From positions 9,420 to 73,419 of the forward strand of contig JBBTXR010000001.1 in NCBI GenBank assembly GCA_038062175.1: DNA of 64,000 nt, read 5' to 3'. Below the pieces are notes generated by a model that had not been told where the DNA came from, made no database searches, and worked only from the letters and a program-made list of their open reading frames with translations. This document shows positions 43,913 through 64,000 of this stretch, piece by piece. The translations under genes were made by a program, and so were the position numbers. Positions within the stretch are counted from its first letter, which is position 1. The number at the start of each line of letters is the position of its first letter. The stretch is from Patescibacteria group bacterium (lineage in GTDB: Bacteria; Patescibacteriota; Minisyncoccia; Phycocordibacterales; Phycocordibacteraceae).

Positions 43913-43913
43913 A

Positions 43914-45485: not shown

Positions 45486-45524
45486 GAAAGCGCCCGGATC
45501 CAGATGGACCCGGGCGTTTCTTCT
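45486..45524 (-). terminator. Rho-independent terminator downstream of rpmB
   Basis: gcgcccgg-(loop)-ccgggcg hairpin with a U tract on the minus strand. Confidence 0.65.
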
Positions 45525-45531
45525 GCCCTGC

Positions 45532-45777: not shown

Positions 45778-45822
45778 AGTCCCCGCATGCTAGCATAGGG
45801 ACACGTAAATCGGCAACTTTCT

Positions 45823-46452: not shown

Positions 46453-46455
46453 CAT

Positions 46456-47112: not shown

Positions 47113-47259
47113 ATTTGGTTCTAACAGGTAATGAAGCACCTCATTGCCGCAGTCGCACTCCTGGTTCTAGGCTATATCCTCGGCCGACAGCAGAGGTAGC
47201 TCACGCATACTTCAGTCTCGCTGCGTAAGACTGCGCATGTAGCAGCTAATAAGGCGCGT

Positions 47260-47544
47260 ATGACACAGATACAGACCAATGGCACAAAGCGCACGACCGA
47301 CCATGACGAGATCGAGCGCTGGGCAGAAGAGCGACAGGGCACGCCTGCGATCGTGGAATCGACGTGGGATGGAAACACTGCAGTGCTTCGAATTGACTTC
47401 GGCGAGCCGAACGAAACGCTTATGGAAATAGGGTGGGATCAATTCTTCCAGATCTTTGATGAGGCTGATCTTGAGTTCCACTACCAGGGATATACCGCAG
47501 ATGGAGACATCAGCCGCTTTCATCGGTTTGTTGAGCAGGAATAA
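47260..47544 (+). CDS. Hypothetical acidic small protein
   Basis: 94-aa ORF with no recognisable motif. Confidence 0.4.
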   Translation: MTQIQTNGTKRTTDHDEIERWAEERQGTPAIVESTWDGNTAVLRIDFGEPNETLMEIGWDQFFQIFDEADLEFHYQGYTADGDISRFHRFVEQE

Positions 47545-47567
47545 GCTGTAATGGCTATACTGTCGTT

Positions 47568-48206
47568 ATGGAGATAACGAAGTACGGACATGCTTGCCTC
47601 CTTGTTGAGGAAGGGAATGCCACGATCCTCCTTGATCCGGGGGTGTGGAATCCCATGCCTGATGCAACGGGTATCGATGCCGTGCTGATTACCCACGAGC
47701 ATCAGGACCATATCGATATTGAGCAATTGAAGGAGGTGTTAGAGAGAAACCCTGATGCCGTCGTATATACGCACGAGGCTGTCGGGAAGTTGCTTGAAGA
47801 AGCGGGTATTGCATACACTCTGATTACAGAAGGGGAGGTGGTGTCCGTGCAAGGTGTTTCCATACAGAGCTTTGGTCATGACCACGCCGTTATATATGGA
47901 GGCGTGTCTCCCTGCAGGAATACCGGGTATTTGATAGCGGAGAAGCTGTATGTGCCGGGAGATGCGTTGCATGATGTGCCTTTGAAACAGGTAGAGGTGC
48001 TCGCGCTTCCGACCGGGGCGCCTTGGATGAAGCTTTCTGAGGCTATTGATTATGCGAAGAAAGTACGGCCAAGAGTCGTATTCCCCATACATGACGCTAT
48101 GTATACGGAGGACTATCAGCGCGGCCTAGTTCCAAGGATTATCGCTAGCAATATAGGTGATATCGAGTTTAGAGACATGCCCATGGGAGCGGTGGAAGAG
48201 TTTTAG
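47568..48206 (+). CDS. MBL-fold metallo-hydrolase
   Basis: HxHxDH motif (LITHEHQDHID). Confidence 0.8.
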   Translation: MEITKYGHACLLVEEGNATILLDPGVWNPMPDATGIDAVLITHEHQDHIDIEQLKEVLERNPDAVVYTHEAVGKLLEEAGIAYTLITEGEVVSVQGVSIQSFGHDHAVIYGGVSPCRNTGYLIAEKLYVPGDALHDVPLKQVEVLALPTGAPWMKLSEAIDYAKKVRPRVVFPIHDAMYTEDYQRGLVPRIIASNIGDIEFRDMPMGAVEEF

Positions 48207-48286
48207 GTAAGTGGAAAGAGTACAAAACGTCCCCATAAGAGCGATACACTGTCTCTACGACACTGTGTGTCCATTACACTAACCAT

Positions 48287-49186
48287 TTGCAATCCATGAT
48301 GAAAGTATTGGTAGCATCGGGTGTTGCGCTCGGCCTTTTGATTTCGGCCGTGCCAGCACCGGTGTTTGCGCAGACCTCGACATCGAACACGGTGCAGGTT
48401 GAGACGCTCTTGAAACAGATCAAGCAGCTGCAGGATCAGCTCGCAGAACTTAGCAAGCAGCGCGCTGAAGTCGGCGTTGAACTTAAGGACGCCCTTGCGC
48501 TCGCTGCTGATCTTCGTCAGGGCATGACTAGCGAAGAGGTGAAGGCACTTCAGGAGATCCTTGCCGCTGACCCTGAGATATACCCTGAGGGTGTAGTGTC
48601 TGGTTTCTACGGTCCGTTGACCGCGAAGGCCGTCGCTAAGTTCCAGAAGAAGCATGGTATTGAAGGTGAGGCTGCAGTCGGCATGAAGACTCGCGCTCGC
48701 ATCAACGCACTCGCTGATGATAAGGACTTCCGCTGTAAGGCGTGGGGCAAGCTTATCGCTCCTGGCCAGATGAAGAAGCGTCTTGGTAATGCAACCATCG
48801 ACCTCTCTATGTGCGGAAAGGTTCCTGAGGGCATTCAGAAGAAACTTGATGGTGACTGGAGGACGGGTACGTCATCGACCGCTACCTCGACCGATCGATT
48901 TGCGCCGGTTATCTCACGCGTCGACATTGATGACATCACTGATGATTCAGCGATGCTTACGTTCTGGACGAGCGAGCCTGCACAGGCTGCTATCTGGTAC
49001 AGCACCGAGAACGATCTCGATGACGCGGAGGTGGAGGAAAACACGAAGTTTGTGAAGGAGCATGAATTCGAATTTGAGGATCTTGAAGCGGATACGGACT
49101 ACTACTACCGTATCGTCGTAACGGACAAGGCAGGCAACAGTGCCACCTCAACCATCCGAGACTTCGAGACTGAAGAGGAGGATTAA
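48287..49186 (+). CDS. Secreted protein with PG_binding_1-like domain and C-terminal Fn3-like domain
   Basis: Signal peptide, PG-binding motif (GFYGPLTAKAVAKFQKKHGI), then an Fn3-like segment (DTDYYYRIVVTDKAGNSAT). Confidence 0.6.
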   Translation: MQSMMKVLVASGVALGLLISAVPAPVFAQTSTSNTVQVETLLKQIKQLQDQLAELSKQRAEVGVELKDALALAADLRQGMTSEEVKALQEILAADPEIYPEGVVSGFYGPLTAKAVAKFQKKHGIEGEAAVGMKTRARINALADDKDFRCKAWGKLIAPGQMKKRLGNATIDLSMCGKVPEGIQKKLDGDWRTGTSSTATSTDRFAPVISRVDIDDITDDSAMLTFWTSEPAQAAIWYSTENDLDDAEVEENTKFVKEHEFEFEDLEADTDYYYRIVVTDKAGNSATSTIRDFETEEED

Positions 49187-49206
49187 TCGATTGTAGTGAA
49201 GAAAGG

Positions 49207-49236
49207 TAAAAGCCCCGCTCACGCGGGGCTTTTACT
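49207..49236 (+). terminator. Rho-independent terminator
   Basis: aaaagccccgc-tcac-gcggggctttt. Confidence 0.75.
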
Positions 49237-49306
49237 ATCCACTCCCTCGAGGAAAAAATCATAAAATCTTTATATAAATTTTATCGCTCTTGGGTAGAGT
49301 GCGGGC

Positions 49307-51844
49307 ATGAAACTCAATCAACTTTCTGCCTCTGCACTTATCGGTGTACTTATTATTCTTCCGTTCGCGGCGCATGCCGATATCATTCCGGGTGATCCCG
49401 TGCTCTCTACCTTCGAGAATCAGCAGGGACTCATGGTCTCGCTTGAGGTGGGTGGCGAAGTGATTACTGATGCAGCCTCAAGTTCACTTCCCGTAGGTAC
49501 GCCACTAGAAATTGAGTATCAGATCAAACTCGGGAGCAGAAACTATCCAAATGATTCTGAAGAAGTACGAACAGAAATACTGTTGAGTATCCTTGAAGAC
49601 ACGCGAACGTATCTCGAGCTGTGGCGGGGCACACCGTTTACTGCCGACGCAACATTCATCGATTCAAGAGAGTTGTCGGCTACACCTGAGGGTACGGTGA
49701 GCATGAGTGTGCCGGAAGCTGGGGAGTACTTCTTCTTACTCTATGCGGGAGATCAGATACGGGATATGGATGCGTATTGCGAAAAGTATCAGGTCGAACC
49801 AGAAAACTGTGCTGACCCTGAGTTCATACAGCAACATACTCCCGAAGAAGTGCATCCGTACTTCACCTATGAACTCGACTCAGATCCATGGAATGAGTTT
49901 CAGTTTCCGCCTATATGGGGAGGAGTACGTTTTGCAATTGATGCGCCGTCGGTAGGGGCACCGAATATTCTTTTCATTCCAGGATTCACCGCAAGCCGGC
50001 TGTATATGACAGATACCGATGGTGATGAGGAGCCCTTGTGGGAGCCGCTGGGGAGCGAGGACATCAAGAGGCTCGCTTTTACGCCTGAAGGTACGAGCAA
50101 GGAGGTTGTGTATACGCGCGATATCGTTGATTCGATTAAGAATCTTCCGTTTGGGTTTACGGTCCACGAGGAATTTATGGAATATCTCGATGACCTTAAG
50201 GAAGACGAGAAGATCGCTGACTGGAAGGGATATCCATACGACTGGCGGTATGACGTGTTTGATGTGGTCGATAACGGTGCACTGAAGGAGAACGGTTCGC
50301 GCGAATACCTTATTGATGTTGTCGAAGAGCTCGCAGCATCTTCAAAGAATGGAAAGGTAGCGATCGTTGCTCATTCAAATGGTGGACTTGTCGCAAAGGC
50401 GCTTATGGTGCGACTTGAAGCGCAGGGGAAGGCAGATCTTGTAGATAAGATTGTATTGATTGCATCACCGCAGGCGGGGACGCCCAAAGGCATGTTCAGT
50501 CTCCTGCATGGGCGTGAGAAGCTCCTCAACTTCATCGTTCCGGCAGGCGTACTTCGCTCTGTGCTTGCGACCCTTCCGGGCGCATATTCACTCGCGCCTT
50601 CAGGGATGTACTTCGAACAGGAATCTGAGAAGCTTGCCGAATTCAAGAGTGGATCGAAGACTGATGCTTTGGTGGCAGCGTTCGGATCTGCAATTGATTC
50701 AGCAGTAGAAGCACGGGGATTTGCACTCAATACACCAGAGACAAGATCGACTCCAACCGAAAGGGATTCGGGCACACCGCTCCCACTTTCTCCAGAATTA
50801 ATCGCAAAGACTGAAGCGACGCACGCAATCCTAGATGCGTGGGTGCCACCCGCAGGCGTAACGGTGCATGAGATTGCGGGATGGGGCCAGCCGACCGTCA
50901 GTACTGGTTCCTACTACACGCTTAACAAAACCTGCTTGCTTGGAATATTCTTCTGCAGCCAACCAACTATTGAATACAAGCCACTCACTTCTAGTGATGG
51001 AGATGAGACGGTGATGTCATCGAGTGCATTGATGGGGGAGGGTGGGGTGTATTTCAACCTGCATGAATTGAGGGATCAGTTTAGAGAAAACAAAAAGCAC
51101 CATAACCTTACCGATTCTAAGTTCCTGCATCCATACATATCTAATTTGCTTGTCGGTACGACTCCGTTTGAAACAGATTTATTCCCTTATGAAAAACCCG
51201 ATACAAATCTTGCAAACACAGTCGTTGGTATCCACTCTCCTGCACTTATATCGGCAGAAGATACAGAAGGTAATGTGACAGGCATATTCCCACTCACGAA
51301 TAGTGATCTGATGTACGTGCGTGAGGAAATACCAGGCAGTAGTGTCGAGTTGGGAGGAGAAGGTAAATACCTTGTTCTTCCTAAAGAAGGTGCGTACGAC
51401 CTTACTATTGATGGAACTGGTGCCGGGACATTCGGTGTTTCCTTCTCAGATGAGGACGGGAATGTATTTAAGGAGTTAAAAGATCTACCCATTTCGACTT
51501 CTACTGAAGCAACTCTCACCATTGATGACGGAAGTGCAGGATCGCTCATTCTGGATCTCGATGGAGATGGAAAGACAGATGGTGTCGTAAAAGACAAGCT
51601 CGCCCGAAAAGATGCTATAGCTATCTGTAAGAAAGAAATAGGCCTCGTCCGTACTGTGTTCGTGAAATTGTACATAGCTCTTGTTATAGGCAGTATCGAA
51701 TCTCAGGGAAAGGACAATGCAAAGTTTCAGAAGTTCGTCACAGAACTCAAGAAATATGTTCAGGCACACCTGAGCTCTATCCCCCCTGAGCGTGCTGCAG
51801 CTATTGCTACCTGCATCCATGCGCTGGAGAATAGTAAGAAATGA
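49307..51844 (+). CDS. Large secreted alpha/beta-hydrolase (lipase/PGAP1-like) protein
   Basis: Signal peptide (LIGVLIILPFAAHA). GxSxG-type nucleophile elbow (IVAHSNGGLVA). 845 aa with beta-rich C-terminal extensions. Confidence 0.55.
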   Translation: MKLNQLSASALIGVLIILPFAAHADIIPGDPVLSTFENQQGLMVSLEVGGEVITDAASSSLPVGTPLEIEYQIKLGSRNYPNDSEEVRTEILLSILEDTRTYLELWRGTPFTADATFIDSRELSATPEGTVSMSVPEAGEYFFLLYAGDQIRDMDAYCEKYQVEPENCADPEFIQQHTPEEVHPYFTYELDSDPWNEFQFPPIWGGVRFAIDAPSVGAPNILFIPGFTASRLYMTDTDGDEEPLWEPLGSEDIKRLAFTPEGTSKEVVYTRDIVDSIKNLPFGFTVHEEFMEYLDDLKEDEKIADWKGYPYDWRYDVFDVVDNGALKENGSREYLIDVVEELAASSKNGKVAIVAHSNGGLVAKALMVRLEAQGKADLVDKIVLIASPQAGTPKGMFSLLHGREKLLNFIVPAGVLRSVLATLPGAYSLAPSGMYFEQESEKLAEFKSGSKTDALVAAFGSAIDSAVEARGFALNTPETRSTPTERDSGTPLPLSPELIAKTEATHAILDAWVPPAGVTVHEIAGWGQPTVSTGSYYTLNKTCLLGIFFCSQPTIEYKPLTSSDGDETVMSSSALMGEGGVYFNLHELRDQFRENKKHHNLTDSKFLHPYISNLLVGTTPFETDLFPYEKPDTNLANTVVGIHSPALISAEDTEGNVTGIFPLTNSDLMYVREEIPGSSVELGGEGKYLVLPKEGAYDLTIDGTGAGTFGVSFSDEDGNVFKELKDLPISTSTEATLTIDDGSAGSLILDLDGDGKTDGVVKDKLARKDAIAICKKEIGLVRTVFVKLYIALVIGSIESQGKDNAKFQKFVTELKKYVQAHLSSIPPERAAAIATCIHALENSKK

Positions 51845-52275
51845 AGCAAAAGCTCTTATTAGTAGGTGTAGCAACTCTGGGCGTAATTGCCGTTACTTAT
51901 TTGATTTGGCCCGAATGGTTCGGTTTTTGCGAGAAAATCAAAACCGTCACTCGCGGTGATATATGTCGCGCACCATACGCTGCCCTAGTAGGTAAGCCAC
52001 TGTTGCCGTTCACATTAGGTTTTCTGCTAGCCTCACTCTTTGCCTTCTTCGTTACCCGAAAGACTCACCACCACTGGGCCTGGTTTACCCTCTGGTACAG
52101 CATTGTAGCTGCCATTCTCATGCTCCTGGCTATCGCTTCTGAGATTGATGTAGGCATGCTTACCATTCAGCTCTTTGATATAGAGAAGGTGGCCTGGTTC
52201 CTGGCGGGTATATACGCCGTTATCTCAGTCCTTCTCCTCGGTATCTCCGACTTTCTGATCCGTCGGAAGCGATAG
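51841..52275 (+). CDS. Integral membrane protein (4 TM), hypothetical
   Basis: 144-aa hydrophobic ORF overlapping the upstream stop (ATGA). Confidence 0.5.
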   Translation: MKQKLLLVGVATLGVIAVTYLIWPEWFGFCEKIKTVTRGDICRAPYAALVGKPLLPFTLGFLLASLFAFFVTRKTHHHWAWFTLWYSIVAAILMLLAIASEIDVGMLTIQLFDIEKVAWFLAGIYAVISVLLLGISDFLIRRKR

Positions 52276-52286
52276 GAAGGATGTAT

Positions 52287-52315
52287 TTGCATTAATCTAG
52301 GCCTTTCTATATAGT
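52287..52315 (+). promoter_or_regulatory. Sigma-70-like promoter upstream of rpsL (TTGCAT-N17-TATAGT)
   Basis: Near-consensus -35 and -10 with 17-bp spacing, about 36 nt upstream of the rpsL ATG. Confidence 0.5.
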
Positions 52316-52351
52316 GTGCCTAACTCCCACGGGGGAGTTTTCATTTACGAC

Positions 52352-52762
52352 ATGGCAACCATCCAGCAGCTGACAAAGTCTCCTCGGAGCAAGAACAAGC
52401 GAAAATCAAAAGTCGTGGCTCTTGGTCGTGGTTTCAACACCTTGAAGAATCGTCCAACCTTCTACCCAGCGCCATTTAAGCGCGGTGTTTGTGTGAAGGT
52501 GACGACGAAAACCCCCCGCAAGCCTAACTCGGCTATTCGTAAGATCGCCCGTGTCCGCCTTACTAACGGTATGGAGGTTACTGCCTACATCCCAGGTGAG
52601 GGTCACAACCTCCAGGAGCACTCAGTGGTCATGCTCCGTGGTGGTCGCGTGAAGGACATTGGTGTCCAGTACACCATCGTTCGTGGACGCCTTGATACCG
52701 CCGGTCTTGATAAGCGTCGCCGTGGTCGCTCACGTTATGGTGCTAAGCGCCCGAAGGCATAA
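52352..52762 (+). CDS. rpsL: 30S ribosomal protein S12
   Basis: S12 signature (PKKPNSALRK-like: [20 protein letters not shown]). Start at MATIQQL. Confidence 0.9.
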
Positions 52763-52771
52763 TTTTAGAAC

Positions 52772-53236
52772 ATGCGTCACCCTGTAAAGAACAAGTACCC
52801 ACGCCGCCCTGACCTCGTCTACGGATCCGAGGCTATCTCACGCTTCATCAACACGGTCATGTGGGACGGTAAGAAGGACACGGCTCGTAAGCTCGTGTAT
52901 GGAGCGCTCGACAAGATCAAGGAGCAGGAGATGGATCCGCTTGAGACCTTCGAGACCGCCATCCGCAACGTCGCTCCCCTTATGGAGGTTCGTTCCCGCC
53001 GTGTCGGTGGCGCTAACTACCAGGTGCCTCGCGAGGTTCCTCAGCAGCGCCGTATCGCTCTTGCATACCGCTGGCTCATCAACGCTGCCCGCAACAAGAA
53101 GGGGAAGCCTATGGCCGAGAAGCTCGCAGAGCAGATCCTCCTTGCCGCAAAGAACGAGGGTGACGCAATTAAGAAGAAGGACGACATGCACCGCATGGCA
53201 GAAGCAAACAAGGCATTTGCTCACTTCGCGTGGTAA
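52772..53236 (+). CDS. rpsG: 30S ribosomal protein S7
   Basis: S7 motifs ([32 protein letters not shown]). Confidence 0.9.
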
Positions 53237-53307
53237 TTCCTTACCAATAGGAACTGAGAAAGGCGCTCCGTACGGAGCGCCTTTCGCGTCGTATATACTA
53301 AGGAAAC

Positions 53308-53571
53308 ATGAGTGATGAGGTGATATTCGATGGAGAGAAAGATCCGGTGGCATCGCGCCGCTCAAACAATCAGCGTACTGGCAGATCCATAGCCGAACTC
53401 ATTACCCCAGGACCGCGTAAAGAGCAGGGCATGAGCGACAAGGTCGTGCTTGGTGTCCTAGGAACGGTACTTATAGCCTCAATCCTTATTGCGGTTAAGA
53501 CAGCACCCAAAGAAATCGTGCTGCTGACGCCCATGGACGCGCCGCTGGTTAATCCGCCACCGCGCCAATAG
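53308..53571 (+). CDS. Hypothetical small single-TM protein
   Basis: 87-aa ORF with one hydrophobic helix ([18 protein letters not shown]), immediately upstream of and nearly abutting the pilin gene. Confidence 0.4.
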
Positions 53572-53573
53572 TT

Positions 53574-54041
53574 ATGAAACAATCTCCACGCGGATTCACG
53601 CTTATTGAGCTCCTGGTCGTCATTGCGATCATCGGGATCCTGTCTTCGGTCGTGCTCGCGTCATTGAATGTGGCGCGTAACCGGGCGAATGACGCAAAGA
53701 GAAAGTCTGACGCAGGTCAACTTGTTCGGGCAATCGCTAACTTCTACAGCACTAACGGTTCACTTCCGCAGGTTACTAACTTCTGCTCAACGGTGACGCA
53801 TACGACGGGTGGCCCGCTTCTTACGTCAGACCTGGTGCCAGGCTATATAGCAAAGCTTTCAAGTGATCCGACTCGTGGGGGTGGGGCAGGTGACTATATC
53901 TACAGAAATAGAGATGATCATAATGGCGGATATACGGTGTGCGCTGCTCTTGAAACCGATCCGGGTACGGAGGAGCCTTCTGATATGTCGTCATGTGCAG
54001 GTTGGTCGGCTTCGTATAACCACTGTATTACGCAGCGGTAA
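53574..54041 (+). CDS. Type IV major pilin (PilA-like), inside the str operon
   Basis: Classic prepilin N-terminus ([26 protein letters not shown]) and a C-terminal Cys pair. Confidence 0.85.
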
Positions 54042-54045
54042 AAGT

Positions 54046-54080
54046 GAGCGCGCCCCGGAAAGGGCGCGCGAAGCATAAAT
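54046..54080. terminator. Bidirectional GC hairpin between the pilin gene and the antisense ORF
   Basis: gcgcgccc-cggaaa-gggcgcgc 8-bp stem. T-rich on the minus side. Confidence 0.55.
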
Positions 54081-54083
54081 TTC

Positions 54084-54380
54084 TCAGTGACGTTTCGGTC
54101 GTAGTCCGAGTTGTTCACTCACGGTCCGGACCCTCGCCGATGTGTTTTTAAAGCCAAGACTGGTCAGGTCATGGCTACCTACCGCTGTCCAGGATTGTCC
54201 CGTCTCATCTGTCGCAAAAGTAACTTCAGGCATGGCACTGAACGTCGGGCCATACTTTGCTTTCTCAGCCTTTGATCGTGCGATGCTTGGCATGTGGGAG
54301 AAACCGAGTTCGCGAAGCTTTGCGGCGTGTTTACTCTCTGCGTCCATGAATTTATCTCCTTCTGTCGAAGACCGTACCAT
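54084..54380 (-). CDS. Hypothetical protein (antisense to the str operon direction)
   Basis: 98-aa ORF with no motif. Coding status uncertain. Confidence 0.3.
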   Translation of the reverse strand: MVRSSTEGDKFMDAESKHAAKLRELGFSHMPSIARSKAEKAKYGPTFSAMPEVTFATDETGQSWTAVGSHDLTSLGFKNTSARVRTVSEQLGLRPKRH

Positions 54381-54458
54381 CCCGTTTGCTTTTTGTCCCC
54401 CAGTTCCGTATCTTATGGGTAACGCAACTGCGGGCTTTTTTATTTACTTTCACACCTT

Positions 54459-56606
<2,148 letters not shown>

Positions 56607-56650
56607 GTATCTGCTACCTCAAAAGAACATAGCGCTGTCCTGCGACAGCG

Positions 56651-57523
56651 CTATGTTCTTTTATATGCCTCTCGTAACGCAACTACGTCGTCACTTACGT
56701 TCTTCAGCGTAGGAACGAGGTGGTCGTAGAGTATATCGATGAGTTTGAATGTCTCTTCGAAAGCAGTGCGAGATTGAGGGAGGCTATGGAGTGAGAAGAT
56801 GTAGATCTTTGTTCCTACACACTCAAATCCATACGAGCCAAACGAATCCATATATGAGGCCATGAATGCAGGATCCAGCACCGTGAGTGCCTCCACTTCC
56901 ATCTCGTGAGAGGTGTACACATCAAATTGGTCATTAAATGGTCCTTCAAGCCGAAGGATTCTTGTTCCATGAGGGCTCCAATCTCTAGCTCCACTCCAAC
57001 GTTTTGGTCGCACTAGCAGATCGAGCATGGGAACTGCGCACTCTACCTCCCATACGAGCATCTGATGATATGTCCTGTGCTTGTGGCTACCGGTGGTGTA
57101 GTGGAAGGTGAAGAAGCGTGTCGGACGACCTTCGTAGGTTCCTGAGAACACGTCGGCGAGTCTGCGACTGTGCCCGAATGAAAAGATCTGTCCGGTAACG
57201 GTATTCATGGCAGCGGATTCGCTGTACGCGAAGCCGTAGGATGCGGCAATCTCCTTATAAAATTGTTTCTGGACGACACGTCGCGCAAGTCCGTATGCAA
57301 TCAAAAAGGGTGCGATAGGTAACGAAAGTACGAGGACCACACCCGTTGCGTTGCTTACGAAGGTTTCTAGAGATCCTAGTGCGAATGCGGCTACGACGAG
57401 CCCTGCAATAGCACAGAGTTCAAAGACTATGGCGATAGTGGCGAGTACCTGTGTCCGTCTGCGGTGTGTCACCCACAGATGCGTCATAAGGGCATCCTCA
57501 ACGCTTTCTATGCGAGATTCCAT
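56651..57523 (-). CDS. Hypothetical membrane protein (2 N-terminal TM helices plus cytoplasmic domain) between fusA and tuf
   Basis: 290-aa ORF on the opposite strand to the ribosomal cluster. Confidence 0.5.
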   Translation of the reverse strand: MESRIESVEDALMTHLWVTHRRRTQVLATIAIVFELCAIAGLVVAAFALGSLETFVSNATGVVLVLSLPIAPFLIAYGLARRVVQKQFYKEIAASYGFAYSESAAMNTVTGQIFSFGHSRRLADVFSGTYEGRPTRFFTFHYTTGSHKHRTYHQMLVWEVECAVPMLDLLVRPKRWSGARDWSPHGTRILRLEGPFNDQFDVYTSHEMEVEALTVLDPAFMASYMDSFGSYGFECVGTKIYIFSLHSLPQSRTAFEETFKLIDILYDHLVPTLKNVSDDVVALREAYKRT

Positions 57524-57622
57524 GATTTCCTCACAGTACCTTGATTCATATGGACGACCTTCTCTTATGCACAGGATTTCTCATGCTATGCTCAGCCGCA
57601 GAACAGTAGGAGGAAGGTTTCA

Positions 57623-57859
57623 ATGGCAACCTATTTCTTCGAGACGATCACAGACGGACAGGCACTGAGATTCAATGATGATGACGTACTCGTCTTCGGG
57701 GCAGTCAACAATGATCGATTTCCCTTCAGCGAGGTCTGCATCTTGGCTCGACCGCGACTTCCAGCACCGCCACCCGTACTCGGCAAACGGCTCCTGATGA
57801 CGCAGACGGTGCTCCGCAGACCTGAACTGTGGCAGAAAAGGACACGAGGCGACCCCTAG
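57623..57859 (+). CDS. Small hypothetical protein with strong SD and its own terminator
   Basis: AGGAGGAAGG sits 5 nt upstream of the ATG. 78 aa. The stop is embedded in a GC hairpin terminator. Confidence 0.45.
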   Translation: MATYFFETITDGQALRFNDDDVLVFGAVNNDRFPFSEVCILARPRLPAPPPVLGKRLLMTQTVLRRPELWQKRTRGDP

Positions 57860-57880
57860 GGTCGCCTTTCCTTGACCTTT
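57848..57880 (+). terminator. Rho-independent terminator
   Basis: ggcgaccc-cta-gggtcgcc followed by tttccttgaccttt. Confidence 0.7.
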
Positions 57881-58078
57881 CATTTCACGGCCTGTATCTT
57901 TACCCCTAACGCGAGTACGGCGCTCTTTTTAGTATTCCTTCTCCATAGGGGACAGGGGTTTCTGAAAGGCGCTGCGCGGGGAAATCGCCCAACGCCTTGG
58001 TCGCCTGCCATTCTCTGAGGGGAAGCAGGCAGGCGCGGCAAAAAGTTATAACTTTAGCTACCAGTAATTTACGTACCT

Positions 58079-59281
58079 ATGGCAGATGCATTCGATCGCA
58101 GCAAGCCGCACATGAACGTAGGAACCATCGGTCACGTTGACCATGGTAAGACCACGCTCACGGCTGCTATCCTCAACGTCCTTAACCTTAACTCTGGTGC
58201 CGGCTACAAGGCTCGCGCTGAGAAGGTTGAGAATATCGACAACGCGCCTGAAGAGAAGGCTCGTGGTATTACCATCGCGCTCCACCACTCGGAGTACGAG
58301 TCACCGAACCGCCACTACGCGCACATCGATGCGCCGGGCCACGCTGACTACATCAAGAACATGATCACTGGTGCCGCCCAGATGGACGGCGCAGTCCTCG
58401 TGGTTGCTGCAACTGACGGCGCAATGCCTCAGACCCGTGAGCACATCCTTCTTGCAAAGCAGGTTGGTGTGCCAAAGCTCATCGTCTTCCTCAACAAGGT
58501 GGACATGGTTGATGACAAGGACATGGTGGACCTCGTTGAAGAGGAAATCCGCGAACTTCTCACCAAGCAGGGCTTCGACGGTGCTGCTACCCCCGTTGTT
58601 AAGGGTTCAGGTTTGAAGGCACTTGAGGCAACCTCAGCAGATGACGAGTACGCACTCAAGGTGAAGGAGCTCATCGACACGATGGACTCATACTTCCCAG
58701 ATCCTGTTCGTGAGACCGACAAGCCGTTCCTTATGGCAATTGAGGACATCTTCTCGATTGAAGGACGCGGTACGGTGGTCACCGGTCGTATCGACCGCGG
58801 CATCGTAAAGGTGGGTGAGGAAGTCGACATCGTCGGTCTTCATGACACCGCCAAGACGACTGTCACCGGTATCGAGATGTTCAACAAGCAGCTCCAGGAG
58901 GGTCAGGCAGGCGACAACGCAGGTATTCTTCTTCGCGGTACGAAGAAGGAGGACGTGCATCGCGGCCAGGTGCTCGCAAAGACTGGTTCTGTGAAGCCAC
59001 ACACCGAGTTCGAGGCTGAGGTCTACATCCTCTCCAAGGACGAGGGTGGTCGCCACACCCCATTCTTCTCAGGTTACAAGCCTCAGTTCTACGTTCGTAC
59101 AACCGACGTGACTGGTGAAGTGACCCTTCCAGACGGAAAGGAAATGGTTATGCCAGGTGACACCGTGACCTTCAAGGTCAAGCTCACCGCGCCTATCGCC
59201 ATGGAGGAGCAGATGCGCTTTGCTATCCGCGAGGGTGGCAAGACGGTTGGTGCCGGCGTCGTGACGAAGATCACCGTCTAA
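58079..59281 (+). CDS. tuf: Elongation factor Tu (divergent)
   Basis: [18 protein letters not shown] motifs with full EF-Tu length. Unusual substitutions versus the canonical sequence ([12 protein letters not shown]). Confidence 0.95.
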
Positions 59282-59312
59282 GGTATCATTCTCACAACGC
59301 ACATTGACTCGT

Positions 59313-59678
59313 ATGGCAACCGCAACTAAGAAAGTATCCAAGAAGAAGGTCGCTGAGGCAGGTCCTGCCGCAGAGCCCAAGCTTCGCATCCGTGTGCGCG
59401 CCTACGAGCACAAGATTCTCGACCTTTCGGTGAAGCAGATCATGGATACGGCTAATCGCTTCGATGCGAAAATCGTCGGTCCGATCCCGCTCCCGACCGA
59501 GATCAAGCGCTGGACCGTGAACCGCTCCACGTTCGTGCACAAGGACGCACGCGAGCAGTTCGAGATGCGCATCCACAAGCGCCTCATCGACATCATGTCG
59601 CCGAACCCTAAGGTTATCGAGGCTCTCACGAACCTCAACCTTCCTTCAGGAGTCACGATTGATGTGAAGATGGCGTAA
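59313..59678 (+). CDS. rpsJ: 30S ribosomal protein S10
   Basis: S10 core (RIRVRAYEHKILD...KDAREQFEMRIHKRLIDI) with a Lys/Ala-rich N-terminal extension. Possible alternative TTG start at 59304. Confidence 0.9.
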   Translation: MATATKKVSKKKVAEAGPAAEPKLRIRVRAYEHKILDLSVKQIMDTANRFDAKIVGPIPLPTEIKRWTVNRSTFVHKDAREQFEMRIHKRLIDIMSPNPKVIEALTNLNLPSGVTIDVKMA

Positions 59679-59695
59679 GTCAAAAGATGCAAAGC

Positions 59696-59726
59696 AAAGC
59701 GCCCCGAAAGGGGCGTTTTGCTTTTG
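59696..59726 (+). terminator. Hairpin H1 of a conserved terminator-like repeat family (after rpsJ)
   Basis: aaagcgcccc-gaaa-ggggcgtttt followed by GCTTTTG. Shares the GGGGCGTTTTGCTTTT tail with H2-H4. Confidence 0.7.
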
Positions 59727-59764
59727 TCTGTCGCTAATGATTATCTATCGATAGGAGGTGTCTC

Positions 59765-60040
59765 ATGTTCTTGATCTATTTTTTATCTCCCCATGAAAGG
59801 TGGCGGCGATTCTGTGAAAGAAATCGTGAGTTCCAGCGGGCGCGTCGTAGATGGTTGCGGCAAACTCCTGGCACGCCAGAGGAGAGAGCTGCGGGCAGAG
59901 AACTGAGTCGAATTAGAAAGAAGCTTCACCGACTTGGGGCATCGCTCGGTATGGCAGAAGTCGCCACTGAGCTCCTGCTTCCGCGGGAGTTTCGTTCACG
60001 CGGCACGCCCCCGATTCCCAGGTGGATTCTTGCACGTTAG
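59765..60040 (+). CDS. Array ORF A: 91-aa Arg-rich hypothetical protein
   Basis: GGAGGTG SD 4 nt upstream of the ATG. Bounded by hairpins H1 and H2. Confidence 0.5.
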   Translation: MFLIYFLSPHERWRRFCERNREFQRARRRWLRQTPGTPEERAAGRELSRIRKKLHRLGASLGMAEVATELLLPREFRSRGTPPIPRWILAR

Positions 60041-60047
60041 TTAGCAA

Positions 60048-60078
60048 GGGCGCCTCGGAAACGGGGCGTTTTGCTTTT
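60048..60078 (+). terminator. Hairpin H2 of the repeat family
   Basis: gggcgcctcg-gaaa-cggggcg followed by TTTTGCTTTT. Confidence 0.7.
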
Positions 60079-60125
60079 ATATATTTATGTGTTATTATTG
60101 ACCTGAATTATTTGGAGGTCTTTAG

Positions 60126-60434
60126 ATGAGCACGTTTTGGGTTTCTGAAGCAGTGATCAAGGAGACGGTTCGGAAATACCAACTTCCCGAACACGAGGTC
60201 AGATGCCGGTTCATTCAGATTGATGGGTACCTGAAGGACGCGACCAGGTTGAGCGATGCAACGCTCAAGAGCACGATGTGGGACTATCGCCTCCGTGGAG
60301 ATCACTACCAGGCCTCACTTCTCTGGACGGTCTGGACCTGTAGAGCCTTGGGCTTCACGGAACAAGAGATGGTCGACCTGATCATCCCACTGACGGTCTA
60401 CCCAGCTGATGACCTGGTTCAAAGGGTCGCGTAG
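60126..60434 (+). CDS. Array ORF B: 102-aa hypothetical protein
   Basis: GGAGGT SD 6 nt upstream of the ATG. Bounded by H2 and H3. Confidence 0.5.
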   Translation: MSTFWVSEAVIKETVRKYQLPEHEVRCRFIQIDGYLKDATRLSDATLKSTMWDYRLRGDHYQASLLWTVWTCRALGFTEQEMVDLIIPLTVYPADDLVQRVA

Positions 60435-60452
60435 TCCCTCAAGATCAACGTG

Positions 60453-60485
60453 CGACGCCTCGAGCAATCGGGGCGTTTTGCTTTT
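60453..60485 (+). terminator. Hairpin H3 of the repeat family
   Basis: gcgacgcctcg-agcaat-cggggcg followed by TTTTGCTTTT. Confidence 0.7.
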
Positions 60486-60528
60486 ACCCATGCGCATGCG
60501 ATAGTCGCCACAGAAGAGGAGGTGATCC

Positions 60529-60927
60529 ATGACTGGATTCATCAAGACGCACGAGCGACTGTCAGCATTTGCGGAAGTGATCAAGCCGAGACATATCGCG
60601 GTTCCTTTCCACGCCTTCGGCAAGGCGGAGATCGACGAGAATGCAGGTCACCTCGTGAGTTTCTTCCAGGAGCAAGACGCATGGGTGCCGTTCGAAATGT
60701 CGGCCTTCAAGGAGTTTTGCACACGCTTCAGGCCGAATGGCAGTCCCATCTTCTACGGTCTTGTCGGTGACGGGTTCGATGAGGGTGATCCTACTATCCA
60801 TTACGATCCGCATCTCATCCGGCTTCTCGATGATGGTCGATTGATTGTGACCGACCGATTCATCCTCCGTTGTAGCGGCATGAGTTCGGATCGGATTAGC
60901 GGTCTGACGCGAGAAATTGCAGCCTGA
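60529..60927 (+). CDS. Array ORF C: 132-aa acidic hypothetical protein
   Basis: GGAGGTG SD 4 nt upstream of the ATG. Bounded by H3 and H4. Confidence 0.5.
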   Translation: MTGFIKTHERLSAFAEVIKPRHIAVPFHAFGKAEIDENAGHLVSFFQEQDAWVPFEMSAFKEFCTRFRPNGSPIFYGLVGDGFDEGDPTIHYDPHLIRLLDDGRLIVTDRFILRCSGMSSDRISGLTREIAA

Positions 60928-60934
60928 TCCTAAG

Positions 60935-60967
60935 CGACGCCCCGAGCAATCGGGGCGTTTTGCTTTT
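60935..60967 (+). terminator. Hairpin H4 of the repeat family
   Basis: gcgacgccccg-agcaat-cggggcg followed by TTTTGCTTTT. Near-identical to H3. Confidence 0.7.
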
Positions 60968-61023
60968 CTCTTCATGTGAAATGCGATATTCTCATCCTCT
61001 GTTCTTTCGAAAGGAGGTGATAT

Positions 61024-61406
61024 TCGTGAGCAGAAGACCAATCGGATCTCGTGTCCTGTGGGGTGAAGCTAGGAGTGCTGCACAACATCTCGATGCTGCG
61101 ATGGTTCAGTTTTACCCTGATCCTACAACGTATAAAGGATTTGACGGTAAGCTAGACGATTCCAGTCTTCCCCAAAAGAAGAACTTCGCGCGTTGGAAAC
61201 GTCCAAAGCGTAAGGATGGAACCCGTAAACGGGGAACTCAAGTTCGGCCTCTCGTCATTCGCGAAATCAGAAACGCGAAGGATGAGAAGGGAAGATCGGT
61301 GCGTGGGAGATTCGTCTCTCTTGCTGACTACGAGCAACGCGCTGCGAAATACCGTGAAGATGTGAAGAAATATTTTGAAGAAAACAAGAGGCGGTCGCGG
61401 AGATAG
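61024..61406 (+). CDS. Array ORF D: 127-aa Lys/Arg-rich hypothetical protein (GTG start)
   Basis: GGAGGTG SD 6 nt upstream of the GTG at 61024. The ORF-track ATG at 60960 lies inside hairpin H4 and lacks an SD. A GC hairpin (ggtcgcgg...ccgcgacc) overlaps the 3' end. Confidence 0.45.
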
Positions 61407-61418
61407 GTCCGCGACCGT

Positions 61419-61452
61419 AACGCCCTCGAGCAATCGAGGCGTTTTCTTTTCC
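61419..61452 (+). terminator. Hairpin H5 of the repeat family (compensatory variant)
   Basis: acgccctcg-agcaat-cgaggcgt followed by TTTTCTTTT. The stem keeps base pairing through paired substitutions relative to H3/H4. Confidence 0.65.
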
Positions 61453-61520
61453 ATAGATACAAATTACGGTATGCTCTTCGTCTGTTCCTTGTTCTAGAAA
61501 CGAGATTAGGGGAGTCGATA

Positions 61521-61652
61521 GTGACGAAAAAGATCAAGAAAGAATTGAGCGCCGAGGAGCGCAGAGATTGGCGGGAAAACAGTCAGAATGCAGCGCCCAA
61601 ACCGCCGGTAGGGGTCCTCAAAGATCTCAAAGAGTCTAACCCTCGTGATTGA
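61521..61652 (+). CDS. Array ORF E: 43-aa basic peptide (GTG start)
   Basis: GGGGAG SD 5 nt upstream of the GTG. Followed by a distinct GC hairpin terminator. Not in the ORF track. Confidence 0.3.
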   Translation: MTKKIKKELSAEERRDWRENSQNAAPKPPVGVLKDLKESNPRD

Positions 61653-61661
61653 GTGCTCAGT

Positions 61662-61697
61662 GGCCGCCTCGCAAGGGCGGCCTCCATTTTATTCTTG
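61662..61697 (+). terminator. Rho-independent terminator after ORF E
   Basis: ggccgcc-tcgcaag-ggcggcc followed by tccattttattcttg. Confidence 0.65.
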
Positions 61698-61984
61698 CGG
61701 TATATCTAACTCTGCGTTTAAATAGATGAAGGTGCTCTTTGTGCCACACGCCGCAAACGCGGCGATTCCGCGTTTCTACGAGGGGTTTGTGTGTTTCGAA
61801 GACTGCAAATGCGAGTCGAACAACGGCTAGTCGATCTTGAGTGTGAGCATCGTGTTGTGAAGCGCTTCTCGCACGTTGCGAGACATCCGAGCGATATACA
61901 GTATCGACGCGCGTTCTGGTACTTCGTATGCAGATGCTTCGGCATCTGCCCAGAAAAAACGCTCGCAGGAGCGTAAAAGAGAAT

Positions 61985-62021
61985 GGGCTCCGCGATTTCT
62001 CGCGGAGCCCTTCTTGGTTTG
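61985..62021. terminator. Bidirectional terminator at the end of the antisense membrane-protein gene
   Basis: gggctccgcg-atttct-cgcggagccc 10-bp stem with T-rich flanks on both strands. Confidence 0.7.
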
Positions 62022-62063
62022 ACCTATCAGTTGGTGGCTAGCGACACCCTGTGTCTCAGATGA

Positions 62064-62678
62064 CTACATCGCGTCGAGAAGATCGTCTTCCGTGTTCCAG
62101 GCGCCGATATAGACGCGATCGAAGCCTCGAACGGCGAGAACGAACGGATCCTTGAGTGTATATTCGACGAGCACATACGCTCCGGCTGCTTCTGCCGCCC
62201 TGATCCTTCGATCGAAGCGCGCTGGCGGCTCGATGATCCAATCCTTTCGTGCCGCTGATAGGTGCAGCTGCCGCCAGCTCCAGGTGGTTCTCGGACCTTT
62301 CCGCTCCGCATAGATCCATAGGCAGAACGTTAGAATGCAGCCGATGGCGGGAGTGAGAAGGAGAGCCGCGTGTAGTTGCAGACCAGGCATCGAAAGACAG
62401 GCCAAGCCGGCAACAGTCATCGCGACGACGACGTAGAGATAGTTGTTCGAGTACTGCCGGCCGGTGTACCGCTCGATTATCCTCGGCACGAAGTAGAGTC
62501 TCGGTAGCCAGAGCAGGTAGTAGAGGGTCTGGAGCAAGGCTGGCAATCGGTCCTTGCGCTGATGTGCCTGCACGAGGTGCTTTGGAATAACCGGCACCCC
62601 TTGTGCACGCAGCTCGCTCTCAAGCTTGCTGCAGGTTCTTGCGCCCTTCTCGAAGGCGCGTACTGCATCCATCTTCAT
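62064..62678 (-). CDS. Hypothetical membrane protein, antisense to the ribosomal cluster
   Basis: Two or three TM helices (YLYVVVAMTVAGLACL, LLLTPAIGCILTFCLWIY). Start chosen at the Met preceded by AGAGGT SD (62678). The ORF-track maximal extent to 62996 would overlap rplC. Confidence 0.5.
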   Translation of the reverse strand: MKMDAVRAFEKGARTCSKLESELRAQGVPVIPKHLVQAHQRKDRLPALLQTLYYLLWLPRLYFVPRIIERYTGRQYSNNYLYVVVAMTVAGLACLSMPGLQLHAALLLTPAIGCILTFCLWIYAERKGPRTTWSWRQLHLSAARKDWIIEPPARFDRRIRAAEAAGAYVLVEYTLKDPFVLAVRGFDRVYIGAWNTEDDLLDAM

Positions 62679-62772
62679 GAGAACCTCTAGTGCTATGGGG
62701 GAGAGGCACCCAATGTGCTTCTCCAGAACTCCCGTGGTAGTTGTAGCCGGAAAGCCTCGTAGAGACAAGAAG

Positions 62773-62801
62773 TTGCATTGCCTGAAGGCTTCGTGTAGAG
62801 T
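62773..62801 (+). promoter_or_regulatory. Sigma-70-like promoter for rplC-rplD (TTGCAT-N17-TAGAGT) with a structured ~90-nt leader
   Basis: Same architecture as the rpsL promoter. Leader contains GC hairpins (cccctcgggg, ggccgggaagcccttcgggg) before the rplC ATG. Confidence 0.45.
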
Positions 62802-62892
62802 GCCCCTATCGCTACGTATCCCCTCGGGGAGACCAATGGCCGGGAAGCCCTTCGGGGACGAACGCGCTGTTGAGGCGCGCTTTATTTTTTTC

Positions 62893-63504
62893 ATGAAATT
62901 CCTACTCGCCAAGAAAGGTCGTATGACCCAGATCTTCGATACCGATGGTCGGGTCTTTGCTGGTACCGTCCTTACGACTGCTCCGATGACCGTCACCCAG
63001 GTGAAGACGGTTGAGTCTGACGGGTATGAGGCGGTTCAGGTTGGTTTTGGCGAGAAGAAGGAGAGTCGCGTGAATAAGGCCGTCCTTGGACACACCAAGG
63101 GTAAGGGCTTCCAGACCATCAAGGAGTTCCGCACCGAAGCAGGAGACCTTGCGGTAGGTTCTGAGGTAACCGCAGACACCTTCGCTGAGGGTGATGTGGT
63201 TGAAGTCTCGGGCACCGTGAAGGGTAGGGGCTTTGCCGGAGTGGTGAAGCGCCATGGTTTCCATGGTGGTCGTCGCTCGCATGGTCAGAAGCACTCTGAG
63301 CGTGAGCCAGGATCGATTGGTGGCGGTGGTCGTGCCGGTGGTCGCGTCGCTAAGGGTATGCGCATGGGTGGCCGCATGGGTGGTAACCGCATCACGGTAA
63401 CCAACCTCAAGGTGCTCAAGGTCGATGCAGCTCGCGGCGAGATCATCATCTCAGGAGCCGTTCCTGGCGCTCCTGGTTCACTCGTCGAGATCGTCTCGAA
63501 ATAA
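62893..63504 (+). CDS. rplC: 50S ribosomal protein L3
   Basis: L3 N-terminus (MKFLLAKKGRMTQIFD) and a Gly-rich C-terminal region. The ORF-track start at 62626 is a spurious upstream extension. Confidence 0.9.
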   Translation: MKFLLAKKGRMTQIFDTDGRVFAGTVLTTAPMTVTQVKTVESDGYEAVQVGFGEKKESRVNKAVLGHTKGKGFQTIKEFRTEAGDLAVGSEVTADTFAEGDVVEVSGTVKGRGFAGVVKRHGFHGGRRSHGQKHSEREPGSIGGGGRAGGRVAKGMRMGGRMGGNRITVTNLKVLKVDAARGEIIISGAVPGAPGSLVEIVSK

Positions 63505-63515
63505 ATTTACGTACT

Positions 63516-64000
63516 ATGGCACCAGCTAAGAAAACCGTCGCAAAGAAGGCCGCTCCTAAGAAGGCAGTTGCTGCAAAGGCAACAGCTCCTAAGAAGGCAG
63601 TTGCATCTGAAGCGAATATTTACACCATGGCAGGGGGAGAGGCGGGTACTATCGCACTTCCTGCGGAGCTTTTCGCACAGCCTTGGAAGGCAGATCTCGT
63701 GCACCAGGTAGTTATCGGTATGCAGGCAAACGCACGCCCAACGGTCGCGAACACCAAGTTCCGCGGCGAAGTTGCTGGTGGTGGTAAGAAGCCATGGAAG
63801 CAGAAGGGTACTGGTCGCGCACGACACGGCTCTAACCGCTCTCCTATCTGGAAGGGAGGTGGTGTGACCCATGGTCCTCGCGCAGAGCGCGTCTACGCCG
63901 TGAAGATCAACCGCAAGATGCGTGCCGCAGCGCTTGCCTCTGTGCTCTCACGCAAGTGGGCAGATGGTCAGATTGTCTTCGTTGATTCTCTCGCGTTCAC
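63516..64000 (+). CDS. rplD: 50S ribosomal protein L4 (3'-truncated by the window end)
   Basis: Lys/Ala-rich N-terminal extension followed by L4 core motifs (KPWKQKGTGRARHGS...PIWKGGG). Confidence 0.9.
   Translation, partial: MAPAKKTVAKKAAPKKAVAAKATAPKKAVASEANIYTMAGGEAGTIALPAELFAQPWKADLVHQVVIGMQANARPTVANTKFRGEVAGGGKKPWKQKGTGRARHGSNRSPIWKGGGVTHGPRAERVYAVKINRKMRAAALASVLSRKWADGQIVFVDSLAF

Follow-up and report, generated by a model that had tools for sequence, protein, structure and literature searches.

The 64,000-nucleotide (nt) stretch of DNA analysed here (the window) is from a Kaiserbacteria-like member of the Patescibacteria and carries part of the str/S10 cluster of translation genes, collinear and in canonical order, with three wide spaces separating rpsL-rpsG, fusA, tuf-rpsJ and rplC-rplD. 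The best explanation of this arrangement, to which we give a probability of about 0.7, is a cluster fragmented into short units with permissive slots between them, in which genes turn over in the ordinary way and no dedicated mobile element takes part. The original prediction, made from the sequence of the window, had read the pattern as an intact gene order broken three times by accessory DNA and had proposed a preferred landing zone or a mobile system targeting the cluster. Gene calls and tblastn anchors recovered the order with its three breaks, and gene calls and family searches agreed with the contents described for the inserts; the notion of a recurrent insertion site applies only in a weaker form, to permissive spaces that separate short units. 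Positions are given in the numbering of the whole window, and all core genes lie on the plus strand (Table 1).

Between the tblastn anchors the wide gaps measure 1222 nt (rpsG-fusA), 1472 nt (fusA-tuf) and 3214 nt (rpsJ-rplC), and the narrow ones 9 nt (rpsL-rpsG), 31 nt (tuf-rpsJ) and 2 nt (rplC-rplD). A fourth interruption of ~2.4 kb, between rplB and rpsS, lies just past the window end and was read in a public contig of the same population (L082:7150-9630; loci other than the window are cited by L numbers), as was the composition of the fourth unit, rplC-rplD-rplW-rplB. Core proteins were anchored by tblastn in 80 related Patescibacteria loci, and a gap was counted as wide at >300 nt. The rpsG-fusA junction was wide in 24 of 64 loci (range 3-7385 nt), fusA-tuf in 49 of 56 (101-9243 nt) and rpsJ-rplC in 18 of 51 (maximum 4789 nt), and each of the narrow junctions in a single locus (rpsL-rpsG 1/63, tuf-rpsJ 1/53, rplC-rplD 1/50). 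Further downstream, rplB-rpsS was wide in 11 of 30 relatives, and rplD-rplW, rplW-rplB, rpsS-rplV and rplV-rpsC never were. Within the closer clade, wide gaps were found at rpsG-fusA in 15/24 loci and at rpsJ-rplC in 11/23; in the most distant third the figures were 3/24 and 3/15, and fusA-tuf was wide throughout. Two relatives (L014, L017) likewise have all three gaps >1 kb.

The inserts differ between relatives at the same junctions, as expected of the accessory DNA that the original prediction had proposed. Even the closest relatives (L044, L001, L002, L003 and L144, with fusA 87-91% identical) carry inserts of other length and content: the rpsJ-rplC slot of L144, whose rpsJ is 98% identical, holds a GNAT acetyltransferase gene and a MOSC-domain gene, and that of L044, L001 and L002 holds other open reading frames (ORFs). 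Among species-representative genomes, the nearest fusA sequences are 87-90% identical (L044, L001, L002, L003), and exact-protein look-ups of tuf and of the 136-amino-acid (aa) rpsL product gave no match. A Pfam census of 156 gap ORFs in the relatives returned a mixed collection with a single IS200-type transposase and no integrase among the listed families. It included toxin-antitoxin pairs (YafQ, ParE, HepT with its nucleotidyltransferase), peptidoglycan-binding and surface proteins, subtilases, and enzymes of nicotinamide adenine dinucleotide (NAD) salvage and nucleotide synthesis; 117 of 155 gap ORFs were co-oriented with the core genes.

The gaps are best read as boundaries between separately promoted units, because homology to the relatives ends at a gene or terminator and resumes at or near a promoter. 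A blastn comparison with the five closest relatives gave four blocks only: 52285-53240, 54371-56606, 57856-59725 and 62773 to the end. The first starts at 52285-52287 with L002 and L003, and the blocks of the second begin at 54371-54407, near the fusA promoter-like site. On the tuf side homology starts at 57856 with L144 and at 57891 with L044; past rpsJ it ends at 59724-59725 with both, and before rplC it resumes at 62773 with L144 and at 62794 with L044 and L002. In L144, the nearest relative here (tuf 95% identical), it stops at the last base of the rpsJ terminator and restarts at the first base of the rplC -35 box. For fusA, tuf and rplC alike, homology resumes at, or within ~35 nt of, the conserved promoter.

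The promoter motif TTGNNN-N16-18-TANNNT, counted within 250 nt upstream of each gene in the window and its close relatives, was present before rpsL in 26/26 loci, fusA in 20/31, tuf in 24/25 and rplC in 18/22, and before the unit-internal genes rpsG in 1/26, rpsJ in 2/23 and rplD in 1/22. The boxes of fusA, tuf and rplC stay in register among relatives, whether these bear inserts or not. Alignment showed the fusA site to be conserved in L044, L001, L002, L003, L006, L007 and L009, and the tuf boxes to read TTGACC or TTGCAT, a spacer of 17, and TATCTT or TATAGT. Units 1 to 3 each close with a very stable hairpin; the hairpins bounding units have z-scores of -3.7 to -9.6, and the predicted hairpins show the features of intrinsic terminators, a GC-rich stem-loop with a T-run just past a stop codon (-13 to -31 kcal/mol). 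Hairpins answering to the strong terminators claimed for the inserts were found after rpsG, fusA and rpsJ, and the promoter-like elements claimed before rpsL and rplC were recovered by the promoter scan and by alignment with relatives, respectively. As in other cases of insertion between operons, the extra genes lie between units, as far as the predicted boundaries indicate, and the core units are collinear and intact. We infer from the sequence that the predicted boxes and hairpins act as promoters and terminators.

In the proposed mechanism, the str/S10 genes of this lineage would form a chain of short units, rpsL-rpsG, fusA, tuf-rpsJ, rplC-rplD-rplW-rplB and a further one beginning with rpsS, and not two long operons. 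Every unit would open with a conserved sigma-70-type promoter and a leader, and units 1 to 3 would close with a strong hairpin; extra DNA in the space from the end of one unit to the next promoter would leave the expression of essential genes undisturbed. Lineage-specific genes with their own signals could build up in these slots and be replaced over time. Among them would be pilins, small membrane proteins and orphan minigenes; relatives add toxin-antitoxin pairs and enzymes to the list. As to the route, we infer that genes would most likely be gained and lost through illegitimate or short-homology recombination, perhaps following uptake of DNA. Selection would hold the core units adjacent and in order, and for that reason the pattern would look like an ultra-conserved cluster interrupted repeatedly.

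Table 1 Predicted features of the str/S10 region, in window coordinates
Feature	Position	Strand	Remarks
rpsL-rpsG promoter-like site	52286-52315	+	TTTGCA-18-TATAGT; from promoter scan
rpsL	52352-52762	+	unit 1; PF00164
rpsG	52772-53236	+	unit 1; PF00177
Unit 1 end hairpin	53258-53285	+	perfect 14+14 palindrome; -24.3 kcal/mol, z -3.7
87-aa ORF	53308-53571	+	slot 1; hydrophobic stretch
Type IV prepilin	53574-54041	+	slot 1; PF07963 (E 2.4e-9), TIGR02532
Two-way hairpin	54048-54069		between pilin gene and antisense small gene; -20.1 kcal/mol
Antisense small protein	54084-54380	-	slot 1; 98-aa ORF; gene caller 87 aa, 54084-54347
fusA promoter-like site	54386-54414	+	TTGCTT-17-TATCTT; 44-nt leader; element spans 54386-54458
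fusA	54459-56606	+	unit 2
Two-way hairpin	56621-56662		perfect 19 bp; common to fusA and convergent membrane-protein gene; -30.8 kcal/mol, z -9.6
290-aa membrane protein	56651-57523	-	slot 2; weak DUF3137 match
78-aa ORF	57623-57859	+	slot 2; own hairpin 57847-57867, -23.0 kcal/mol
tuf promoter-like site	57872-57900	+	TTGACC-17-TATCTT; conserved ~178-nt leader to 58078
tuf	58079-59281	+	unit 3
rpsJ	59313-59678	+	unit 3
rpsJ terminator (U0)	59690-59725	+	-28.9 kcal/mol; first copy of repeated hairpin ending ...GGGGCGTTTTGCTTTT
Minigene ORF1	59765-60040	+	slot 3; 91 aa
Hairpin U1	60047-60078		follows ORF1
Minigene ORF2	60126-60434	+	slot 3; 102 aa
Hairpin U2	60452-60485		follows ORF2
Minigene ORF3	60529-60927	+	slot 3; 132 aa
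Hairpin U3	60934-60967		follows ORF3
Minigene ORF4	61026-61406	+	slot 3; 126 aa
Hairpin U4	61418-61451		follows ORF4; degenerate
Doubtful small ORF	61521-61652	+	not called as gene in public assemblies
Hairpin	61662-61682		downstream of array; unrelated to repeat
Doubtful small ORF	61791-61976	+	not called as gene in public assemblies
Two-way hairpin	61985-62010		downstream of array; unrelated to repeat
Antisense 204-aa ORF	62064-62678	-	slot 3; membrane-like by eye
rplC promoter-like site	62773-62801	+	TTGCAT-17-TAGAGT with TG extension; found by aligning relatives; 91-nt leader
rplC	62893-63504	+	unit 4
rplD	from 63507	+	unit 4

The second proposal of the original prediction, a mobile system that targets the cluster, was not upheld, the gaps being unit boundaries and the searches for its traces negative. 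No integrase, transposase or other mobility gene and no phage or defence family was found among the ten insert proteins with Pfam, PHROGs, PADLOC and NCBIfam, which recognised only the pilin. The six outer junctions show no target-site duplications or direct repeats above chance, the longest shared words being 5-6 nt and the mean in shuffles ~6. The GC content of the inserts (0.50-0.58) falls within the gene background of the window (0.524 +/- 0.032), no foreign composition was found, and their codon adaptation is average to somewhat low; that of the core genes is high, as expected for highly expressed genes. The preferred landing zone stands in part: over the 80 loci the slots behave as recurrent sites of insertion and turnover at the scale of the lineage, but they are best read as permissive and not as a targeted zone. 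The backbone upstream of rpsL encodes ComEC, superoxide dismutase, a metallo-beta-lactamase-fold protein and an M50 peptidase, and the junction between the M50 peptidase gene and rpsL, used as a control, ranges from 53 to 6748 nt in relatives (>300 nt in 18/53, >1 kb in 11/53), the same distribution as at the ribosomal slots. Because this junction is equally variable, the slots are not peculiar to the translation cluster; wherever two conserved units meet in these genomes, a variable slot seems to be a general feature.

A number of points weigh against the proposed chain of units and its turnover. The promoter, terminator and boundary assignments are predictions; the fusA box was found in only about two thirds of the loci counted above, and rpsG and fusA may remain co-transcribed in some relatives (L004, L005, L008). 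Variable presence of the inserts among close relatives was seen at species or genus distance only, and the control is a single neighbouring backbone junction. In the rpsJ-rplC slot, a 16-mer of the terminator module recurs in four exact copies with unrelated ORFs between them; random gain and loss does not explain this repetition, which hints at a more specific local process.

That the junctions are artefacts of a chimeric contig is practically out of the question. The window matches public assemblies of a population from Hainich groundwater, well H51. One of them (L081, GCA_964366495.1) is identical (100%) over 42772-58325, which covers rpsG-fusA and most of fusA-tuf, and an independent one from another sample (L083, ENA assembly ERZ1292627) matches at 99.9% over 54474-64000, with fusA-tuf and rpsJ-rplC in one piece; L082 and L084 also confirm the rpsJ-rplC junction. 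The arrangement is therefore real, since independent assemblies reproduce all three junctions, and the chimeric contig that the original prediction had named as a way to refute it is ruled out for them. What speaks for an artefact is confined to tuf, within which the public assemblies of this population break (L081 extends to 58325, L082 begins at 58350 and L084 at 58820) and where every difference between the window and two independent assemblies falls, in two patches (58327-58333 and 58633-58642). These patches and breaks suggest co-assembled strain or species variants at a very conserved gene.

The inserts could also be an ancient, fixed part of the cluster, that is, core-like unannotated genes and not accessory DNA, an alternative that we consider very improbable. 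Some cargo is indeed common to several genomes: for the antisense small protein of slot 1, phmmer found a homolog at the same junction in L044 (E 7e-21); in L085, a short contig of another sample, a 64% identical homolog of the 290-aa membrane protein directly follows fusA in convergent orientation; a DUF3298 gene is kept in the rplB-rpsS slot of five relatives (L002, L004, L005, L009, L044); pilins recur in the slots, those of L001 and L027 in the same one as in the window; and the composition of the inserts is native. Most insert genes, however, have no counterpart in any of the 80 related loci, the slots differ in length and content even where core proteins are 87-98% identical, and those insert genes that are shared have diverged much further than the core genes (in L085, 64% against 94% for the adjacent end of fusA). 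Sharing of inserts between sister genomes, the other outcome that would have spoken against accessory DNA, was thus seen for some genes, but at a level of conservation far below that of the core. Because some cargo is common to the slots of relatives, and thus of greater age than first appears, the slots hold genes of different ages.

The rpsJ-rplC slot requires separate treatment, as it opens with an array of four co-oriented minigenes (ORF1-ORF4) that show no similarity to one another, each with a GGAGG site upstream and a hairpin copy downstream. The five hairpins, U0 to U4, sit 5-20 nt past stop codons, and each minigene has upstream a TGn-type extended -10-like box, placed after a terminator-like hairpin. 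The 16-mer GGGGCGTTTTGCTTTT occurs in four exact copies and one degenerate copy, all in the array, where 0.05 would be expected by chance in the 64-kb window; it is confined to the array also when up to two mismatches are allowed. Each copy supplies the 3' arm, with its tail, of a hairpin that has a GNRA loop; from the first hairpin of the array onwards the energies go from -28.9 to -13.3 kcal/mol. The repeats measure 24-34 nt, with a stem of 9-11 bp, a GNRA tetraloop and the tail TTTTGCTTTT; the 34-nt module reads GCGACGCCYCGAGCAATCGGGGCGTTTTGCTTTT. Neighbouring hairpins are most alike: U0 and U1 have a GAAA loop, and U2, U3 and U4 share the loop GAGCAATC and a TGCGATAKT box, with a downstream GGAGG in U2 and U3. 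In L144, the rpsJ terminator and the TGCGATAGT box downstream of it match U2 and U3.

Three of the minigenes were searched against billions of proteins (ORF2, ORF3 and ORF4) and had no credible homologs. ORF3 and ORF4 match only themselves; an apparent homology of ORF2 to three giant repeat proteins was spurious, its score being that of a 28-residue segment summed over 10-11 repeats. Structure prediction for ORF3 without an alignment was unusable (predicted local distance difference test, pLDDT, 34). Several minigenes have below-average codon adaptation (z -1.4 to -2.5), and ORF3 is average (z +0.7). No second array with the module was seen in the 80 related loci or in metagenome contigs: the 16-mer was not found in the former, nor a 22-mer of the module in JGI metagenome contigs. 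Dispersed intergenic repeats of the REP/BIME or MITE type occur in many copies across a genome; for the 16-mer the comparison covered the window and these 80 loci. A 17-mer of the module proved to be a common terminator word with >120 mostly single matches, the one useful match being L144; L125, L138 and L181, with two copies each, carry repeats of an unrelated family. That separate family, GAAAAGTGCGCCCCGA-N6-TCGGGGCGTTTTGCTTTTTAGGGC, is widespread (L125, L138, L143, L183 and others, in soil and groundwater contigs), sometimes occurs twice per contig and appears unrelated to the lineage of the window.

Tandem duplication of whole cassettes is excluded as the origin of the array, because the minigenes show no mutual similarity; local duplication of the module with gene conversion, and recombination at the module, are both possible readings. 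In the former, the terminator-promoter module of rpsJ would have been duplicated by slippage or unequal crossing-over and homogenised by gene conversion, and the sequences between the copies would have been captured from elsewhere or have become coding de novo. We regard this as unlikely; it concerns the array only and is compatible with gene turnover in slots as the explanation of the cluster. The likeness of adjacent hairpins, the orphan status of the three minigenes searched and the low codon adaptation of several agree with it, as do the repeated terminators or promoters in slots of L053, L031 and L005. Against it, no duplicated coding sequence can be traced, and the ORFs look like established genes: the codon usage of ORF3 is average, and all four have strong GGAGG sites and take up most of the interval from one hairpin to the next.

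Distinctly less probable is an integron-like capture of cassettes at the rpsJ terminator hairpin, in which unrelated minigenes would have been inserted singly, each leaving a copy of the site, by a recombinase that works in trans or has so far escaped recognition. The confinement of the 16-mer to the array, the identity of its first copy with the rpsJ terminator itself, the single orientation of the cassettes, their unrelated and, where searched, orphan ORFs and the match of the L144 terminator and box to U2 and U3 would all fit such a process. Yet the array is flanked by tuf-rpsJ on one side and by the 204-aa ORF and rplC on the other, with no IntI-type recombinase adjoining, and the sole Phage_integrase-family protein found in the window, a Xer-like tyrosine recombinase (8000-8905), lies 51 kb away. 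The short hairpins with GNRA loops and T-runs have the form of ordinary intrinsic terminators; they lack attC boxes (GTTRRRY, which the GTTTTGC after the array stem does not fit) and the attC length of 55-140 nt, and neither a second array nor the cassettes themselves were found elsewhere. Chromosomal integron arrays, such as the VCR arrays of Vibrio, and integrase-less attC clusters likewise consist of co-oriented, unrelated, mostly orphan small ORFs between near-identical hairpin-forming repeats. The array of the window differs from them in lacking an adjacent integrase, in having short terminator hairpins in place of attC sites, in its ORFs, which appear to have each their own -10 box and ribosome-binding site, and in being the only array seen. 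It does not fit the definition of an integron: no integrase adjoins it, its repeats are not built like attC sites and its cassettes do not seem to lack promoters. It is quite improbable that the terminator-promoter module (a hairpin ending in TTTTGCTTTT, the TGCGATAKT -10 box and a ribosome-binding site) is a recombination site that captures orphan minigenes serially; if it were, it would constitute a hitherto undescribed, integrase-independent integron-like cassette system in Patescibacteria, directly downstream of a unit that ranks among the most highly expressed in the cell.

Linkage of tuf and rpsJ, with S10 last in a str-type unit, is known from cyanobacteria, plastids, Thermotoga and archaea. 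As in those systems, rpsJ stands close behind tuf in the window, the unit ends in a strong hairpin and rplC opens a separate unit; the difference is that here rplC still follows on the same strand, with variable cargo in the gap, and the parts are not dispersed. In plastids, a conserved inverted repeat lies 3' of rps10 (PMC2410131). Insertions between units of the str/S10 cluster have been documented in Gammaproteobacteria and Bacilli, where small sets of unrelated genes likewise lie between collinear translation operons whose core order is kept, with no sign of distant horizontal origin and just occasional transposable elements (PMC8046335). Those insertions are mostly at canonical operon borders, rpoBC-str and str-S10 (PMC8046335), whereas in the window the str-S10 border (tuf-rpsJ) is tight, the breaks fall inside the canonical operons, each with a conserved promoter, and the same slots vary over a whole clade. 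A literature search for such splitting of the cluster in Patescibacteria found nothing; what is new here is the position of the breaks inside canonical operons and their recurrence over a clade.

The result refines known principles of genome organisation and does not describe a new system. The str/S10 cluster is a textbook case of conserved gene order, and its ribosomal protein genes commonly serve, as one syntenic block, in the binning and phylogeny of uncultured lineages; in one large Patescibacteria clade, slots whose variable genes take up as much as 9 kb bear on the extraction of such marker blocks. They suggest that, in these small and probably slow-growing cells, selection to keep ribosomal genes in long co-transcribed operons is relaxed. 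The slots are also fixed, easily found addresses for comparing populations in their lineage-specific genes, among them pilins, surface proteins, toxin-antitoxin pairs and orphans, and candidate new leaders are flagged before tuf and rplC.

The antisense small protein of slot 1 had no family match. Pilin genes lie in the rpsG-fusA slot of the window, L001 (9077-9925) and L027 (9229-9876) and in the fusA-tuf slot of L144 (5853-6359), and their products are alike just in the N-terminal prepilin segment; they may represent one fast-evolving orthologous gene or repeated arrivals. A search of 5.8 billion proteins gave just two homologs of the 290-aa membrane protein, that of L085 and another that is 71% identical, and the 78-aa ORF of the same slot has no homologs in the relatives' loci. 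The 204-aa ORF of slot 3 gave no family matches in Pfam, PHROGs, PADLOC or NCBIfam. A longer, 310-aa reading of it was rejected as an over-extension into the rplC leader; its apparent matches in L002, L006 and L144 fall on that leader read antisense. Three genes were read in the rplB-rpsS slot of L082: on the plus strand one resembling 2OG-Fe(II) oxygenases, and on the minus strand a DUF3298 gene and a 173-aa ORF. The M50 peptidase-rpsL junction of the window spans 5.9 kb (46453-52351), and just 53-300 nt in many relatives. It encodes HD-domain, metallo-beta-lactamase-fold and peptidoglycan-binding proteins, an 845-aa LCAT-like lipase and a 144-aa membrane-like ORF; an LCAT-like gene also adjoins rpsL, on the opposite strand, in L001 and L044.

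In E. coli, the S10 leader is an L4-controlled attenuator upstream of rpsJ. The rplC leader of the window (62802-62892) contains a CGCTAYGT box, a variable hairpin and, directly before the ATG, a conserved CGCGC/GCGCG hairpin with a T-run, and shows no obvious ribosome-binding site; in an alignment of nine sequences, both sides changed in 4 of 6 stem pairs. By analogy with the E. coli leader, it could be an attenuator of the rplD-containing unit. The two are alike in being conserved leaders with a hairpin and T-run directly upstream of the first gene of that unit, and differ in that the leader of the window precedes rplC and not rpsJ and has no Rfam match. The tuf leader (57901-58078) is conserved in L044, L002 and L144 and is predicted to form two long hairpins, with a consensus fold of -34 kcal/mol and little covariation among the four sequences; a second conserved type, TAACGCATCTTGGCGTCGCTCTTTGG..., occurs in L004-L009, and neither type has a match in Rfam. 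The searches of the gaps for known RNA families returned none, just a weak sraL-like terminator match and a palindrome, and no tRNAs were found in the region. Between the rpsL promoter-like site and the start codon lies a small hairpin with a T-run (52322-52339), a possible leader element of the rpsL-rpsG unit.

Five copies of the 9-mer TTTGCTTTT were counted in the 64 kb, four of them in hairpin tails of the array and one at the -35 box of fusA (54385-54393). In L007, L009 and L006, the tail of the rpsG terminator likewise overlaps the fusA -35 box, which suggests that composite terminator-promoter elements are typical of the lineage of the window.

Apparent inserts within fusA in some loci were set aside, since the long matches are probably due to the similarity of the fusA and tuf GTPase domains, by which fusA merges with the neighbouring tuf (in L006, fusA lies at 10001-12145 and tuf at 12560). 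The complete Kaiserbacteria chromosome OY969413.1 (L008:12131-12943) carries a 0.8-kb insert flanked by a 22-nt repeat of the fusA 3' end, ATCGCGTCCAGAAAGTAAACCA, stop codon included, the sole flanking direct repeat noticed at these junctions that duplicates the end of a core gene. By eye, the insert contains a nucleotidyltransferase-like ORF and a neighbour resembling an MNT/HepT toxin-antitoxin pair; Polbeta, NTP_transf_2 and HepT-like domains were found by Pfam among the fusA-tuf gap ORFs, in matches not tied to L008.

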